Below are positions 7,997-29,459 of a stretch of 64,000 nt of DNA, one piece after another. A program made the translations under genes and the position numbers. Numbering within the stretch: position 1 is the stretch's first letter; each line of letters opens with the position of its first letter. The notes beneath the pieces were generated by a model. The model was given only the letters and a program-made list of their open reading frames with translations, did no database searches and was not told where the DNA came from. Source of the stretch: a virus (taxonomy: Duplodnaviria > Heunggongvirae > Uroviricota > Caudoviricetes); IMG/VR virus record IMGVR_UViG_3300017917_003521; one strand, 5' to 3'.

Positions 7997-8020
7997 TCTT
8001 TCATCAAAAGAAGTAAACGG

Positions 8021-8053
8021 AACCCAGTCAGTGAAAATTGACTGGGTTTTTTT
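8021..8053 (+). terminator. Intrinsic terminator/attenuator before Ile/Gly/Ala tRNA array
   Basis: AACCCAGTCAGT-GAAA-ATTGACTGGGTT plus U-tract. Confidence 0.85.
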
Positions 8054-8057
8054 ATTT

Positions 8058-8138
8058 CGGCAGATACCGGTCCAATCTTATACATTGGATATCCGTAGTG
8101 GTAAGTTGAAAACGTGGGTTCGAATCCCACTCTGCCGA
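8058..8138 (+). tRNA. D-arm-less rearranged tRNA with TAT (Ile) anticodon loop
   Basis: CGGCAGA/TCTGCCG acceptor, CCAAT-CTTATAC-ATTGG right after a 7-nt connector, 25-nt variable region, canonical T arm. Confidence 0.6.
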
Positions 8139-8345: not shown

Positions 8346-8428
8346 GCGGGTGTCGTATAACGGTAGGTAATTCGACATTACACCTGGCTTCCAACCAGGA
8401 GACGAGGGTTCGACTCCCTTCACCCGCT
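8346..8428 (+). tRNA. tRNA-Gly (TCC) with enlarged D loop
   Basis: CCTGG-CTTCCAA-CCAGG; D loop TAACGGTAGGTAATTCGACAT. Confidence 0.85.
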
Positions 8429-12755: not shown

Positions 12756-13412
12756 ATGGATTTATTTCACTTTGATATAGAAACTTGTGGTCAGTATAAA
12801 GACTACGATTCTTTTTTAGACTCTGACGAGAGAGGCGCTAGACTTTTTCAATCTAAGTATGAAAAAATGAACTGGTCTGAAAAATATGTCGATATAAACG
12901 AAGCTTATATTGAAAATGCCGGTATAATCTCGACATATGGTAAAATATGTTGTATATCTTTTGGTTATGAATCAAATGGTGAAAAGCATATTAGATCTTT
13001 CTATGGTGATGATGAAAGAGACATAGTTGAATCATTTAACAACTTACTAAAGAAAATAGAATCAAAAAATTTTAGTCTATCAGGATTTAGAATTAATCAC
13101 TTTGATATTCCTTGGGTTCTACATAAACTCCATAAGTATGACATTGAACCAGCTAATATGATTTATCTATATGATAAAAAGCCTTGGGATATGAGAATTG
13201 TAGATATGTCTGATGATTGGAAACAAAAATTTGCTTGGTCATTCTCATTTGACGAAATGTGCTACGAGCTAGGAGTTAAATCACCTAAAGACATAATCAA
13301 TGGTTCTGATGTTCATAAATACTACTGGTCAGGTAGAATAGAAGATATTAAAACTTATTGTGAAAAAGACGTTAGTTCATCAATTGATGCCTCTAAAAAG
13401 TTGTATAAATAA
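12756..13412 (+). CDS. Stand-alone PolB-type 3'-5' exonuclease
   Basis: FDIET, GFRINHFDIPW, YCEKDV (DEDDy). Confidence 0.8.
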   Translation: MDLFHFDIETCGQYKDYDSFLDSDERGARLFQSKYEKMNWSEKYVDINEAYIENAGIISTYGKICCISFGYESNGEKHIRSFYGDDERDIVESFNNLLKKIESKNFSLSGFRINHFDIPWVLHKLHKYDIEPANMIYLYDKKPWDMRIVDMSDDWKQKFAWSFSFDEMCYELGVKSPKDIINGSDVHKYYWSGRIEDIKTYCEKDVSSSIDASKKLYK

Positions 13413-15484: not shown

Positions 15485-15595
15485 ATGAAAACAATGAATT
15501 TAAATATGAATCTTAATCTAACAGTGGTGAATACGTTATGTATTAGACCAGTGGAGGGTTTTGCCATATCTAAAAATTTGTTTTCAGTCAACTAA
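15485..15595 (+). CDS. Leader peptide 3 MKTMNLNMNLNLTVVNTLCIRPVEGFAISKNLFSVN (putative multi-amino-acid attenuator)
   Basis: 36-aa ORF between promoter cassette and terminator. Confidence 0.75.
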   Translation: MKTMNLNMNLNLTVVNTLCIRPVEGFAISKNLFSVN

Positions 15596-15623
15596 TGTAA
15601 GACAAATAAACTAAAGATAAGTG

Positions 15624-15655
15624 AAACCCTCAGACAAAAATCTGAGGGTTTTTTT
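15624..15655 (+). terminator. Intrinsic terminator/attenuator before the large tRNA array
   Basis: AAACCCTCAGA-CAAAAA-TCTGAGGGTTT plus U-tract. Confidence 0.85.
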
Positions 15656-15723
15656 ATGCCTGTCCTCCTGAACATTTGGTGTTGGTTCGGGAGGACATGA
15701 AAAAGGAAAACACCATACCACAT

Positions 15724-15795
15724 TCCTCGGTAGCTCAGTGGTAGAGCAAACGGCTGTTAACCGTTAGGTCGCTGGTTCGAGCCCAGCCCGGGGAG
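15724..15795 (+). tRNA. tRNA-Asn (GTT)
   Basis: AACGG-CTGTTAA-CCGTT, G73. Confidence 0.92.
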
Positions 15796-15803
15796 CAAAA
15801 CAT

Positions 15804-15888
15804 TGGTAGGTACCCGAGCGGTATTCAGGGACTAGTCTGATACACTAGGTGAGAAATCACGACATGGGTTCAAATCCCATCCTACCAA
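15804..15888 (+). tRNA. tRNA GAT (Ile) with long variable arm
   Basis: CTAGT-CTGATAC-ACTAG; V arm GTGA-GAAA-TCAC; Tyr-like body. Confidence 0.75.
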
Positions 15889-15894
15889 CAACAT

Positions 15895-15966
15895 TCACTG
15901 GTAGCTCAGAGGCAGAGCAGGCGCCTGTTAAGCGTCAGGTCGGGATATCGTAATTCCCCCAGTGAG
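15895..15966 (+). tRNA. tRNA-Asn (GTT), T loop ATCGTAA
   Basis: GGCGC-CTGTTAA-GCGTC. Confidence 0.75.
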
Positions 15967-15972
15967 CAAAAC

Positions 15973-16051
15973 GCCTCAGTAGCCGAGGTCGCCTTCTAAG
16001 CGACTAATCGTAACGGAACTGAAAATGTAGGTTCGAATCCTACCTGGGGTA
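15973..16051 (+). tRNA. D-arm-less rearranged tRNA with TCT (Arg) anticodon
   Basis: GCCTCAG/CTGGGGT acceptor, 8-nt connector, GTCGC-CTTCTAA-GCGAC, 22-nt variable region, canonical T arm. Confidence 0.65.
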
Positions 16052-16057
16052 CAAAAT

Positions 16058-16130
16058 GGTCTCCTCGTCCAACTGGATAGGACATCGGTCTTCTAAACCG
16101 AGAATATGGGTTCGAATCCCGTGGAGACTA
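16058..16130 (+). tRNA. tRNA-Arg (TCT)
   Basis: TCGGT-CTTCTAA-ACCGA. Confidence 0.9.
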
Positions 16131-16138
16131 CAAAAAAT

Positions 16139-16221
16139 GCCGAAGTGGTGGAATGGTAGACACGCTAGCCTTAGGAGCTAGTACCCGAAAGGGTGTGTGG
16201 GTTCGAGTCCCACCTTCGGTA
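16139..16221 (+). tRNA. tRNA-Leu (TAG)
   Basis: CTAGC-CTTAGGA-GCTAG; long V arm. Confidence 0.92.
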
Positions 16222-16227
16222 CAAAAT

Positions 16228-16315
16228 TGGCAGGTAGCCTAGTGGTTCAGGCACCAGACTGTTAATCTGAGAGAAGAAATTCTCAACGTGGGTTCGAATC
16301 CCACCCTGTCAGCCA
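16228..16315 (+). tRNA. tRNA GTT (Asn) with long variable arm, CCA encoded
   Basis: CCAGA-CTGTTAA-TCTGA; V arm GAGAA-GAAA-TTCTC; G73. Confidence 0.75.
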
Positions 16316-16318
16316 AAT

Positions 16319-16391
16319 AGTCCTGTAGCTCAATCGGGGGAGCGCCACTGTTACATAGTGGAGGGAGTCGGATCGTAACCGACCGGGACTA
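16319..16391 (+). tRNA. tRNA-Val (TAC), T loop ATCGTAA
   Basis: CCACT-GTTACAT-AGTGG. Confidence 0.78.
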
Positions 16392-16397
16392 CTAAAA

Positions 16398-16495
16398 TGC
16401 TTTATGCACAATCTTACGATCTCTCAGTTAAAAGCTGTCGTAGGTTTAAGTGATAAAACAATATGTTTATCAGTTGTGAAAAACATAAAGCACCA
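16398..16495 (+). ncRNA. Three-way-junction RNA ending in CCA
   Basis: TGCTTTATG/CATAAAGCA plus CACAA/TTGTG closing two hairpins; 3' end GCA-CCA. Confidence 0.55.
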
Positions 16496-16496
16496 T

Positions 16497-16570
16497 TGGA
16501 ACATAGCTCAATTGGTTAGAGCATTCGCCTGATACGCGAAAGGTTATGAGTTCGAGTCTCATTGTTCCAA
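16497..16570 (+). tRNA. tRNA-Ile (GAT)
   Basis: TTCGC-CTGATAC-GCGAA. Confidence 0.92.
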
Positions 16571-16578
16571 CAACAAAT

Positions 16579-16661
16579 GGTACTGTGGCCGAGTGGTGTC
16601 GAAAGACGAGAGGCACAGATCTGCAAAATCTGTCACACTGGTTCGAATCCAGTCAGTACCT
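16579..16661 (+). tRNA. tRNA-Cys (GCA) with hairpin inserted in the D loop
   Basis: CAGAT-CTGCAAA-ATCTG; GTC-GAAA-GAC in D loop; U73. Confidence 0.85.
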
Positions 16662-16667
16662 CAACAT

Positions 16668-16739
16668 TGTTCTGTAGCTTAATGGGAAAGCGCTACCTTG
16701 ACATGGTAGAGAGAGTCGGATCGTTACCGACCAGAACAA
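16668..16739 (+). tRNA. tRNA-Val (GAC), T loop ATCGTTA
   Basis: CTACC-TTGACAT-GGTAG. Confidence 0.8.
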
Positions 16740-16745
16740 CTACAA

Positions 16746-16821
16746 GCCTCTATAGCTTTAACGGTAGAGCACCGCACTTGTAATGCGGGGGTTGGCGGTT
16801 CGAATCCGTCTGGAGGCTCCA
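16746..16821 (+). tRNA. tRNA-Thr (TGT), CCA encoded
   Basis: CCGCA-CTTGTAA-TGCGG. Confidence 0.92.
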
Positions 16822-16944: not shown

Positions 16945-17028
16945 GCCGATGTGGCTCAGTGGCGACAGCACTGGTTTTGTAAACCAGAGACGAATAGTCC
17001 AACGGGGGTTCGAGTCCCTCCATCGGCT
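16945..17028 (+). tRNA. tRNA TGT (Thr) with long variable arm
   Basis: CTGGT-TTTGTAA-ACCAG; V arm GAC-GAATA-GTC; U73. Confidence 0.75.
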
Positions 17029-17043
17029 CAAAATAAATCACCT

Positions 17044-18693: not shown

Positions 18694-20157
18694 ATGAAAA
18701 ATATAGTAACAAGAATTGCACCTTCTCCAACTGGACCGTTTGCACATATTGGTAATGTGAGAACTCTATTGTATAACTACTTTCTTGCTAAAAAGAATGG
18801 TGGTAAATTCTATGTTCGTTTGGAAGATACCGATCGTGATAGATATAATGCCTCGTTTTTAACATACTTTAAAGATATGTGTGATTGGCTTGGTATAGTA
18901 CCTGATGGTTCTTATTGGAACCCTGATCCATCTATTGGCTCATTCACTCAATCAACAAGAGATTATTCAGATAAGGTTAAATTCCTTTTAGATAAAGGTT
19001 TGGCTTACTATGCCTTTGATACTAAGGATGATTTAGACGCACTAAAGGCTAAAGGTCTAAAGTATGACTCAACAACTCGCATGTCTATGAATAACTCATT
19101 GACTAATCCATCCACTGATATTATGTTACAAAGTGGTGTTCCTTATGTAATTAGATTTGCTGTTCCAGCTGACTTAGATGTAACTTTCACTGATGCTATT
19201 TTAGGTGATATCACAATCAACACAAATACTTTAGATGATAAAGTTTTAATTAAGTCAAATGGAATTGGCTCATATCATCTTTGTAATGTTTGTGACGATC
19301 ATGATATGGGTGTTACTCACGTTCTTAGAGGTAACGAGTGGGTAAACTCTACTCCTTTCCACGTTATTCTTTATAAGGCTTTTGGTTGGGATGTTCCTAC
19401 ATTTGCTCACTTACCTTTAATTATGAATCCAGATGGTAAAGGTAAGTTGTCTAAGAGAACTGCTATGAAGTATGGTATTCCTATCGCACCACTTGGTTAC
19501 ACAGATGATAATGGTGTTTATACACCAGGTTGGAAAGACTTAGGATATGATCCTAAAGCATTTATGAACTATCTTGCTTTAATTGGTTGGAATCCAGGAG
19601 CTGAAGTAGAAATTATGTCTATGGATGATATGATTAATTTATTCTCTTTAGATAGAGTTCACAAGTCTGGTGCTCGTTTCGATATGGATAAAGCTAAGTG
19701 GATGAACTCTCAATATCTTAAATTAACAGATAACAAAGACTTGATGCCTTATGTTGATGTAGTTGACGATAGATATTCTGATGATAAATTAGACATGATT
19801 GTCTCTTTGGCTAAAGATAGATCTGACTTTAAAACTGACTTGAATAAAATTGTTAAATTATTCTTTGATGTCCCTTCTATCGATGATAGAAGTAAATTAG
19901 ATGATAACTATACAAAAGTTATGTCAGACTTTATCAACAAAATTGATACAATTAACTTTGATGATACAAACTCAATCAAAGACACTATCTCATCAATCTG
20001 TAATGATTTAGGTGTTAAGATGGGTAAAGTAATGCCTGGTTTAAGAATGGCTTTGGTATCCGGGATTGCTGGACCAGACTTAATGACAACAATGTCAATT
20101 CTAGGTAAAGACCAAACAAAATTGAGAATTAATAACTCAATTACGGTAATGGCTTAA
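18694..20157 (+). CDS. gltX: Glutamyl-tRNA synthetase
   Basis: RIAPSPTG, HIGN, RLEDTD, VLRGNEW, KLSKR, anticodon-binding tail. Confidence 0.95.
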   Translation: MKNIVTRIAPSPTGPFAHIGNVRTLLYNYFLAKKNGGKFYVRLEDTDRDRYNASFLTYFKDMCDWLGIVPDGSYWNPDPSIGSFTQSTRDYSDKVKFLLDKGLAYYAFDTKDDLDALKAKGLKYDSTTRMSMNNSLTNPSTDIMLQSGVPYVIRFAVPADLDVTFTDAILGDITINTNTLDDKVLIKSNGIGSYHLCNVCDDHDMGVTHVLRGNEWVNSTPFHVILYKAFGWDVPTFAHLPLIMNPDGKGKLSKRTAMKYGIPIAPLGYTDDNGVYTPGWKDLGYDPKAFMNYLALIGWNPGAEVEIMSMDDMINLFSLDRVHKSGARFDMDKAKWMNSQYLKLTDNKDLMPYVDVVDDRYSDDKLDMIVSLAKDRSDFKTDLNKIVKLFFDVPSIDDRSKLDDNYTKVMSDFINKIDTINFDDTNSIKDTISSICNDLGVKMGKVMPGLRMALVSGIAGPDLMTTMSILGKDQTKLRINNSITVMA

Positions 20158-25593: not shown

Positions 25594-25971
25594 ATGAAAT
25601 ATTTAAAATCAATAAATGAAGAATTTGACAGAGTTGTTGGATTCAGATACTCAGATCCAAAAGAAGCATATAAGATTACGGCTTTATGTATGGGTGAAGA
25701 TATAACTAATGATAAAGTAGAGAAGGCTTTAGGTAAAGTTAGTAATCTAAAATTCAAACCTGAAACTATTAATGTTAAAAATAGTGAAGAGGAAACATTA
25801 ATTGAAACACCTAATGGTGTTGTTAGTATTGATGCTTTTGTTAACTTTGATATAGTAGTATATACAGATAGAGAGATAAGATCTATCATTGAAGAGTTAG
25901 GTGAAATACTATCTTCAGCATTTGATATAGAAATATTAAACTTTAGAGTTAAAAAAGATTTTGGTATTTAA
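25594..25971 (+). CDS. Hypothetical protein (MKYLKSINE)
   Basis: TTAATATATA motif 5 nt upstream of ATG. Confidence 0.65.
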   Translation: MKYLKSINEEFDRVVGFRYSDPKEAYKITALCMGEDITNDKVEKALGKVSNLKFKPETINVKNSEEETLIETPNGVVSIDAFVNFDIVVYTDREIRSIIEELGEILSSAFDIEILNFRVKKDFGI

Positions 25972-26028
25972 AATAATATTATTATCTTTGTACTCACAGA
26001 AGAAAAATAAATAAAAAATAAAAAAATA

Positions 26029-26102
26029 TTTGACAAATTAAAACTTTGTTGTATATTTGTATAAAATAAGAACAAAAGGAACAAAAACTTTTTAATATAT
26101 AC
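26029..26102 (+). promoter_or_regulatory. Promoter cassette (host-type TTTG-N19-TATATTTG plus phage motif), duplicate of 15430-15480
   Basis: 30-nt identity CAAAAGGAACAAAAACTTTTTAATATATAC at 15451-15480 and 26073-26102. Confidence 0.7.
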
Positions 26103-27854: not shown

Positions 27855-29459
27855 ATGAATTTCATTGAAGAAAAAATATTAGATAAAGGTAATCTTGATA
27901 AATTAACTTTAAGATTCCCACCAGAGCCAAATGGTTATTTACATATTGGTCACGCTAAATCCATTATCTTAAATTTTGGATTGGCTGAAAAATATAATAG
28001 ACCTTGTAACTTGAGATTTGATGATACAAATCCAACTACTGAAGATACACATTTTGTTGAATCTATAATAAAAGATATAGAATGGTTAGGCTACAAGCCT
28101 GCTAATATTTTCTATACATCTGATTACTTTGAATTTATTTACAAATGTGCTGTTACTTTAATTAAGAAAGGTCTAGCTTATGTTGATGATTCAACATCTG
28201 AAGAAATTGCTAACTTAAAAGGAACACCCACAGTTGCTGGTAAAGATTCACCATACAAGTCAAGAACTATTGAAGAAAACTTAGATCTATTTAATAGAAT
28301 GAGATTAGGTGAATTTGTTGAAGGTTCTAAAATTCTTAGAGCTAACATTGATATGGCTTCTCCTAATATGATTTTAAGAGATCCTGTTATTTATAGAATA
28401 ATATCTAAGTCACATCATAGAACTGGTGATACTTGGAAGATTTATCCAATGTATGATTTTGCTCATCCTTTAAGTGATTATAACGAAGGTATTACTGATT
28501 CTTTATGTACTTTAGAATTTGAAGTTCATAGACCTTTATATATGTGGGTCTTAGAAAATTGTGATTTAGAAAATCCTTTACCAGAAGAAACTGAGTTTGC
28601 TCGTTTGAACATTGACTATACAGTTATGTCAAAGAGAAAGTTAAAGAGATTAGTTGAAGAATCTTATGTTGATGGTTGGGATGATCCAAGAATGCCTACT
28701 ATCTCTGGATTAAGAAGAAGAGGTTATACACCAAGTGCTATTAAAGATTTTTGTGATAGAATTTCTGTTACTAGAAAAGATGGTGTTGTTTCTTATTCTT
28801 TACTTGAAGAATGTCTAAGAACCGAATTGAATAAGACTGCTCCAAGATTAATGGGTGTCATGGATCCTGTTAAGTTAGTTGTTACTAATTTTGAAGGTGA
28901 AGGATATTGTGAAATTGACAATAATCCAGAAGATGAAAATGCTGGTAAAAGAAAAGTTTCTTATTGTAATGAATTTTGGATTGAAAAAGAAGATTTCAGA
29001 GAAGAAGCCAATAACAAATATCACAGATTAAAGTTAGGTGGTGAAGTTAGATTAAAAGGATTGTTTATAGTTAAAGCCAATGAAATAATTAAAGATGAAA
29101 ACGGTGAAATTATAGAAATCAGATGTACTTATGACCACGATGCTTGGATTGGTGTTACTGAAAAGAGGGTTAAAGGTACTATTCACTGGGTTTCTGTTAA
29201 CCACGGAGTTAAGATGAAAGTAAACGATTATGATAGATTATTTATCAATAGTTCACCAGACAAAGGAGATGAAGATTTTACAACTCATGTCAATCCTAAC
29301 TCATTAGTTATTAATGATAATGCTATCTTTGAGGAAAATGTAAAAGATTGTAAAGTAGGTGTGCCTGTTCAAATGATGAGAAAAGGTTACTATGTTTTAG
29401 ATAAAGATGGTAAGTCTTGGAACAGAACTGTAAGTTTGAAAGAAGGATGGGTAGGTTAA
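27855..29459 (+). CDS. glnS: Glutaminyl-tRNA synthetase
   Basis: RFPPEPNGYLHIGHAKS, RFDDTNP, IYPMYDFAH, CTLEF, MSKRKL, KGTIHWVS. Confidence 0.96.
   Translation: MNFIEEKILDKGNLDKLTLRFPPEPNGYLHIGHAKSIILNFGLAEKYNRPCNLRFDDTNPTTEDTHFVESIIKDIEWLGYKPANIFYTSDYFEFIYKCAVTLIKKGLAYVDDSTSEEIANLKGTPTVAGKDSPYKSRTIEENLDLFNRMRLGEFVEGSKILRANIDMASPNMILRDPVIYRIISKSHHRTGDTWKIYPMYDFAHPLSDYNEGITDSLCTLEFEVHRPLYMWVLENCDLENPLPEETEFARLNIDYTVMSKRKLKRLVEESYVDGWDDPRMPTISGLRRRGYTPSAIKDFCDRISVTRKDGVVSYSLLEECLRTELNKTAPRLMGVMDPVKLVVTNFEGEGYCEIDNNPEDENAGKRKVSYCNEFWIEKEDFREEANNKYHRLKLGGEVRLKGLFIVKANEIIKDENGEIIEIRCTYDHDAWIGVTEKRVKGTIHWVSVNHGVKMKVNDYDRLFINSSPDKGDEDFTTHVNPNSLVINDNAIFEENVKDCKVGVPVQMMRKGYYVLDKDGKSWNRTVSLKEGWVG

Follow-up and report, generated by a model that had tools for sequence, protein, structure and literature searches.

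Outside mitochondria, the cloverleaf fold of transfer RNA (tRNA) is treated as universal. Cyanidioschyzon merolae has tRNA genes that are circularly permuted as a whole and whose products regain a normal cloverleaf through processing. Mitochondrial D-armless tRNAs need adapted partners such as a dedicated EF-Tu, according to one study (PMC1636415), and phages go unmentioned in a 2020 review of non-canonical tRNAs (PMC7609411). For bacteria, a 2024 paper states that all known tRNAs are cloverleaves and describes an engineered tRNA without a D arm that E. coli evolved to use (PMC11551756). The window analyzed here, a 64,000-nucleotide stretch of DNA from a Caudoviricetes virus (IMG/VR record IMGVR_UViG_3300017917_003521), carries a 79-base tRNA-Arg gene at 15973-16051 on the plus strand that departs from all of these layouts. 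We found no published description of its rewired layout in full-text literature searches, and a tRNA with such a core is a new structural variant of tRNA. The gene probably encodes a functional non-cloverleaf elongator tRNA-Arg(UCU) that reads AGA, the main arginine (Arg) codon of the phage, and is charged by the arginyl-tRNA synthetase (ArgRS) of the host.

Compared with canonical class I tRNA-Arg(UCU), such as the gene at 16058-16131 of the window and E. coli argU, the rewired gene has the same 7-base-pair (bp) acceptor stem, discriminator, 5-bp anticodon stem, anticodon loop and T arm. It also shares U8, A14, the R15:Y48 (Levitt) pair, G18G19 and A20, lies in a tRNA array and passes the Rfam gathering score. 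It differs in having no D hairpin between positions 9 and 26. Canonical position numbers are assigned to the rewired family by analogy. The features are as follows, with A3 and A4 denoting alignments of homologues described below.

15973-15979, plus strand: 5' strand of the acceptor stem, pairing with 16044-16050 over 7 bp, with wobble pairs G1-U72 and U4-G69; seven of seven pairs covary in homologues.
15980-15987, plus strand: connector of 8 nucleotides (nt).
15980-15983, plus strand: junction with U8, A9, one extra G and a C equivalent to position 22; in A3 and A4, U8 and A9 never vary, and the extra base is optional across the family.
15984-15986, plus strand: surrogate D-stem, strand equivalent to 23-25, pairing with 16008-16010 by three Watson-Crick pairs in the minimum-free-energy fold and the RNAalifold consensus.
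15987, plus strand: G equivalent to position 26, forming a G-U pair with 16005 in the minimum-free-energy fold.
15988-16004, plus strand: anticodon arm with a perfect 5-bp stem (15988-15992 with 16000-16004); five of five pairs covary.
Within 15988-16004, plus strand: anticodon loop of 7 nt, read from the letters as U33, anticodon TCT (15995-15997), A37 and A38.
16005-16026, plus strand: the 22-nt stretch from the anticodon arm to the T arm.
16005-16007, plus strand: 3-nt linker from the anticodon stem to the returning D-stem strand; a new junction, 3-5 nt long across the family.
16008-16010, plus strand: surrogate D-stem, strand equivalent to 10-12, supported by the minimum-free-energy fold, RNAalifold and the census.
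16011-16019, plus strand: relocated D-loop with U13, A14, A15 (16013), C, G18/G19 (16015-16016), A20 (16017), A and C; the U-A-R...GG motif is invariant in A3 and A4.
16020-16026, plus strand: variable-loop-like linker; its last base, U48 (16026), is the Levitt partner of A15 (16013).
16027-16043, plus strand: T arm with a 5-bp stem and a canonical T loop; 4/5 stem pairs covary in A4.
16044-16051, plus strand: 3' strand of the acceptor stem and discriminator A73 (16051); CCA is not encoded and the trailer starts C-A-A-A-A.

The segments follow one another in the order 8-9, 22-26, anticodon arm, short new linker, 10-21, 44-48 and T arm. With the 10-21 equivalent placed downstream (3') of the anticodon arm, the secondary structure forms a three-way junction instead of a four-way cloverleaf. 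The pairing of 15984-15986 with 16008-16010 is present in the minimum-free-energy fold, where it lengthens the anticodon hairpin. The original prediction, made by a model from the letters of the window, had listed the connector, a perfect anticodon arm and a 22-nt variable region, and all of these segments read as described. It had also assigned the gene to a rearranged D-arm-less tRNA family. The family is borne out by the census described below (163 distinct sequences), but the name D-arm-less does not fit, since a D-stem is formed anew around the anticodon arm. The arrangement suggests that the D/anticodon domain is an internal circular permutation, which a partial tandem duplication with subsequent loss of the outer halves could have produced. 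What the gene has in common with the permuted tRNAs of C. merolae and with laboratory circular permutants is an altered segment order combined with a folded shape that is, or should be, retained. In contrast to C. merolae, the acceptor ends of the phage gene are normal and only the internal D/anticodon domain is permuted, and processing could not restore canonical connectivity.

In the fold that we propose, the chain would leave U8-A9 and enter the 22-25 strand, which normally closes the D-stem, and run straight into the anticodon arm. It would return through the 3-nt linker to the strand equivalent to 10-12, making the D-stem and anticodon stem one continuous hairpin within a three-way junction. 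The D-loop, with A14, R15, G18, G19 and A20, would be presented next, followed by the variable-loop-like linker ending in Y48 and then the T arm. An L shape could then be built by ordinary tertiary contacts, namely U8-A14, R15-Y48 and G18/G19 with the T loop. The three-dimensional fold and the elbow are in this sense predictions from the primary structure and its variation.

Standard tRNA models recognize the gene only in part. The Rfam tRNA model RF00005 matches 15973-16051 with 36.7 bits over model positions 1-71, against a gathering score of 29, but its alignment deletes the D arm, places 5 nt where 15 are expected and opens a 19-nt insert in the variable region. The gene thus passes the threshold and has the canonical 7-bp acceptor stem, the 5-bp anticodon stem with a 7-nt loop (U33, R37) and the 5-bp T stem with a canonical loop, whereas a D-arm hairpin (stem 10-13/22-25) is absent, as only 8 nt separate the acceptor and anticodon stems. 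ARAGORN makes no call at 15973-16051 of the window. We also built a covariance model, R2, from 124 homologues in other phages, with no window sequence included. R2 aligns to 15973-16051 without gaps over positions 1-79 of 79, with 90.7 bits and an E-value of 2.5e-22. The sister gene at 8058-8138 scores 76.3 bits and the best ordinary tRNA of the window 30.2 bits, a gap which implies that the window holds exactly two members of the family. The sister has the same layout with a compensated connector/variable pairing, confirming the covariation between the two copies that the original prediction had noted, and this covariation extends far beyond the window. In the terminator region upstream of the sister gene, at 8014-8040, there are two short near-repeats of the D-loop-like and variable-like segments of 16010-16026, which may be chance or a remnant of another copy.

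The silence of ARAGORN, together with an Rfam score undercut by only two of the 38 tRNA matches in the window and an array rich in duplicated and odd tRNAs, would fit a decaying tRNA pseudogene or a chance tRNA-like product of rearrangement in a repetitive array. The homologues make this most improbable. The records nearest to the window are LR745206 and LR756502, 'uncultured phage' genomes of 634 kb and 642 kb, and both have an orthologue of 15973-16051 at the same place in the array (L001:2964-3043 and L002:1163-1241, respectively). Compensated changes have altered every one of the acceptor, anticodon, T and connector/variable pairings in these orthologues. There are at least 163 distinct sequences with the rewired architecture in several phage groups, and in A4 97% of pair cells are paired compared to 61% in shuffles. 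The gene is real and conserved.

This family was collected by two pattern scans of IMG/VR followed by structural parsing; the first pattern was too loose and returned mostly ordinary tRNAs, and the second was tighter. All family counts refer to members among the matches listed. The retrieval patterns preset G12, R15, GG, Y48 and the T loop, and left free the A-U/G-C match of the Levitt pair, A20 and A73. A first census of 133 members omitted those whose linker starts like the D-loop motif, including the window gene, and the 163-member census supersedes it where figures differ. The members come from Bacteroidota-type megaphages and from Vibrio, Microbacterium and Salmonella phages. A scan of genome contigs gave mostly false matches, with about 17 member loci among the matches listed, mostly on metagenome-assembled contigs; we suspect that these are phage or prophage DNA, and the family looks essentially viral. 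Seven of the 133 first-census members are found by ARAGORN, which misses the other 126 (~95%).

We used covariance-model alignments throughout, since MAFFT misaligned isoleucine (Ile) against Arg types. In A4, which comprises 124 homologues and 120 distinct sequences, 97.0% of pair cells hold standard pairs compared to 61.0% in shuffles. For covariation the score is 0.943, compared to 0.228 in shuffles, of which 0/500 reached it, and control pairings with partners slid by 1-3 columns are paired in 38-44% of cells. The helices of the family all covary, and the smaller alignment A3 gives the same picture. RNAalifold, run on this smaller alignment with 33 homologues, independently predicted the same structure, including the connector/variable pairing.

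The Rfam alignment, with its deleted D arm and its insert, would also suit a genuinely D-arm-less tRNA, in which a short connector and a floppy 22-nt variable loop stand in place of a surrogate D-stem and a fixed elbow, as in nematode or mammalian mitochondria. In this direction points also the surrogate stem itself, which has only 2-4 pairs and fewer than three contiguous ones in 24% of members. The two central pairs, however, are nearly always kept: the pair next to the U-A-R...GG motif is C:G in 160/163 members, with the G preset by the retrieval pattern, and the middle pair is formed in 162/163, by all four Watson-Crick types (GC, CG, AU, UA). Three or more contiguous pairs occur in 76% of members compared to 23% of shuffles. 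Downstream of the stem, A14 and R15 are separated from G18G19 by one to three bases, and the linker that comes next has a pyrimidine as its last base before the T stem. R15 and Y48 match in 161/163 members (A-U in 115 and G-C in 46), where about 59% would be expected by chance with R and Y preset; in A4 the counts are 91 AU, 26 GC and 3 others. This pair is among the top two mutual-information signals in the Arg and in the Ile subset, level with true stem pairs, and the window gene matches through A16013 and U16026. Conserved U8, A14, GG and canonical T loop together with Levitt covariation make no sense for a floppy loop, and mitochondrial D-armless tRNAs lack these elbow elements (PMC7609411). 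We therefore regard a truly D-arm-less molecule as very unlikely. The original prediction had proposed that the relocated GG may rebuild the elbow with the T loop, and the R15:Y48 covariation supports this. Further tertiary covariation, between 26 and the linker or between 22 and the variable-like linker, showed only lineage-type correlations among family members.

The likeness to the mitochondrial forms is limited to the short connector in place of the D arm and to the difficulty that standard finders have with both. In the mitochondrial forms the contacts between D-loop and T-loop are gone and the T arm is often reduced, whereas the phage RNA keeps GG, the Levitt pair, the T loop and a covarying D-stem, and rewired tRNAs are found in phages of ordinary bacteria. 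The engineered tRNA mentioned above is likewise a non-cloverleaf adaptor working with bacterial translation machinery, but it is artificial, needed host adaptation and is truly without a D arm.

Some members vary the plan outside the conserved core. One subclass (L013:11715-11803, L172:8578-8667, L220:10358-10448 and 13235-13323, L019:1173-1262) has an extra 8-12 nt in the last linker, apparently a small hairpin before the T arm, placed like the variable arm of class II tRNAs. Insertion at the site of the class II extra arm leads us to read the last linker as a true variable loop. A TCT member at L108:5533-5614 has an anticodon loop of apparently 8 nt instead of 7.

The anticodons of the family are those of two amino acids with few exceptions. 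The Arg members carry TCT (50), TCG (24), ACG (23), CCT (7) and GCG (2), and the Ile members TAT (29) and GAT (26); CAT occurs twice and CTT once. The CTT (Lys) member, at L215:11003-11080, stands alone and has a U after GG. In bacteria the Arg identity set is A20, C35, U/G36 and A/G73, and the Ile determinants include A73 and U20 (PMC9976931). The base after GG is A in 106/106 Arg members and U in 46/55 Ile members, and the discriminator is A in 55/55 Ile members. The window gene has the full Arg set, with A20 (A16017, placed relative to GG), C35 (15996), U36 (15997) and A73 (16051). That the determinants switch with the anticodon class is the strongest argument for aminoacylation by ArgRS and isoleucyl-tRNA synthetase (IleRS). 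No ArgRS gene was found in the two nearest phages (634-642 kb), which implies that the host enzyme must serve, and none was seen among the larger open reading frames (ORFs) scanned in the window. The window does have phage class I synthetase genes of the Glu/Gln type (Pfam tRNA-synt_1c) at 18694-20157 and 27855-29459, one beside each tRNA array.

On this basis the rewired tRNA would be transcribed and processed together with the rest of its array, charged by the host ArgRS through A20, C35, U36 and A73, and used by the ribosome alongside the adjoining canonical tRNA-Arg(UCU). Codon usage is consistent with such a role in decoding, as AGA makes up 86% of the Arg codons in window ORFs (451/524).

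Several points weigh against a decoding tRNA of this fold. The canonical tRNA-Arg(TCT), which the original prediction had correctly placed next to the gene (16058-16131), begins 7 nt downstream and makes it redundant, so that the rewired copy may have no decoding to do here. The surrogate D-stem is short, with fewer than three contiguous pairs in about a quarter of members as given above, and its outer positions are often unpaired. The invariance of G12, R15, GG, Y48 and the T loop is in part imposed by the retrieval patterns. The stability of the single-sequence fold is ordinary (z = -1.35).

The redundancy bears on the possibility that the RNA is a tRNA mimic or decoy. It would then bind to, or saturate, some protein with affinity for tRNAs, such as a host anticodon nuclease or another tRNA-targeting defense, or it would titrate ArgRS, with decoding left to the canonical neighbor. 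Rewired and canonical tRNAs that share an anticodon stand side by side in the window and LR745206 (L001), where it is Arg TCT, and in LR756502 (L002), where it is Ile GAT. The family is moreover limited to Arg and Ile, among the matches listed, and exactly these two tRNA kinds are the known targets of tRNases with the colicin D fold, tRNA-Arg being cut by colicin D (PMC9990079) and tRNA-Ile by CdiA-CT EC3006 (PMC9424206). A nuclease decoy, however, needs no synthetase determinants, yet A20 and A73 are kept without exception in the Arg and Ile members, respectively. The acceptor stem, the T arm and a 7-nt anticodon loop with U33 and A37 are also kept as for a decoder. At most loci no canonical twin is seen; a canonical tRNA with the same anticodon is present in the locus stretch examined for 18/133 members of the first census. 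Salmonella phage Felix O1 (NC_005282, L344), long used in laboratories, has a TCT member at 25951-26029, followed by an encoded CCA, which is the only TCT (AGA-reading) tRNA of this phage. A decoy is therefore unlikely, and we favor a charged, decoding tRNA-Arg whose aminoacylation, processing and ribosomal use are predicted from its determinants and context.

If so, the rewired phage family would be a natural exception to the statement that all bacterial tRNAs are cloverleaves. A bolder version holds that host ArgRS charges the tRNA and bacterial ribosomes read it in its rewired form, and in addition that the rewiring is adaptive against tRNA nucleases that read the D arm or the core, such as those of the colicin D fold. 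Nuclease escape would account for the limitation to Arg and Ile as well as for the pairs of canonical and rewired tRNAs in megaphages. We hold this combined proposal to be unlikely.

A decoding role would have several consequences for this large family, whose Arg and Ile members would then be natural tRNAs with a permuted D/anticodon domain at work in phages from at least four phyla of bacteria. ArgRS, IleRS, EF-Tu, RNase P and the ribosome would tolerate a different core connectivity. The family would be a natural structural test of which tRNA contacts matter and would provide new scaffolds for the design of orthogonal tRNAs. Phage tRNA repertoires would also be systematically under-counted, given the proportion of members that ARAGORN misses. 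The Felix O1 member is unannotated, as are an ACG member in Vibrio phage D260 (L123:2496-2575) and a TCT member in Microbacterium phage Pumpernickel (L124:2468-2545; NC_073468, about 100456-100533). In Felix O1 the annotated start of an HNH endonuclease coding sequence (26003) overlaps the rewired tRNA, and a likelier start codon for it may be the ATG at about 26048.

Among the genes near members, an HNH_3-like endonuclease ORF is found at 29/96 member loci compared to 8/125 others, but this excess weakens to p = 0.02-0.19 when only tRNA-rich loci are considered. PNK-like and Rnl1-like genes are weakly enriched, and this enrichment is lost on correction for multiple testing.

The window has a GC content of about 28% and four tRNA arrays with 37 tRNA calls by ARAGORN. 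The rewired gene lies in the second array between tRNA-Asn (15895-15967) and the canonical tRNA-Arg(TCT), with spacers of 5-7 nt and a C-A-A-A-A trailer, both as in its array neighbors. Nearly every tRNA in 15724-16821 has a discriminator followed by a trailer of this type and no encoded CCA, so that a CCA-adding enzyme is required. Ahead of the array are a leader ORF (15485-15595) and a terminator, and codon 21 of this ORF is AGA, as the original prediction had pointed out. The leader has 36 codons and, together with the strong hairpin and U-run that follow it (15485-15657 in all), immediately precedes the array. LR745206 has the same arrangement of leader ORF and hairpin (L001, ~2600-2780).

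Other tRNAs of the window are unusual in different ways. Class II-like genes with a long variable arm occur at 15804-15889, 16228-16315 and 16945-17029, with the anticodons Ile(GAT), Asn(GTT) and Thr(TGT) instead of Leu, Ser or Tyr; the tRNA-Asn of this type has an orthologue at LR745206 L001:3298-3384. At 8346-8428 there is a tRNA-Gly(TCC)-like gene with about 30 nt from the acceptor to the anticodon stem, an expanded D region; its Rfam match is limited to model positions 9-63 (8366-8420, 32 bits) and ARAGORN makes no call there. ARAGORN also misses 16579-16661, which according to Rfam is a full-length tRNA (57.4 bits).
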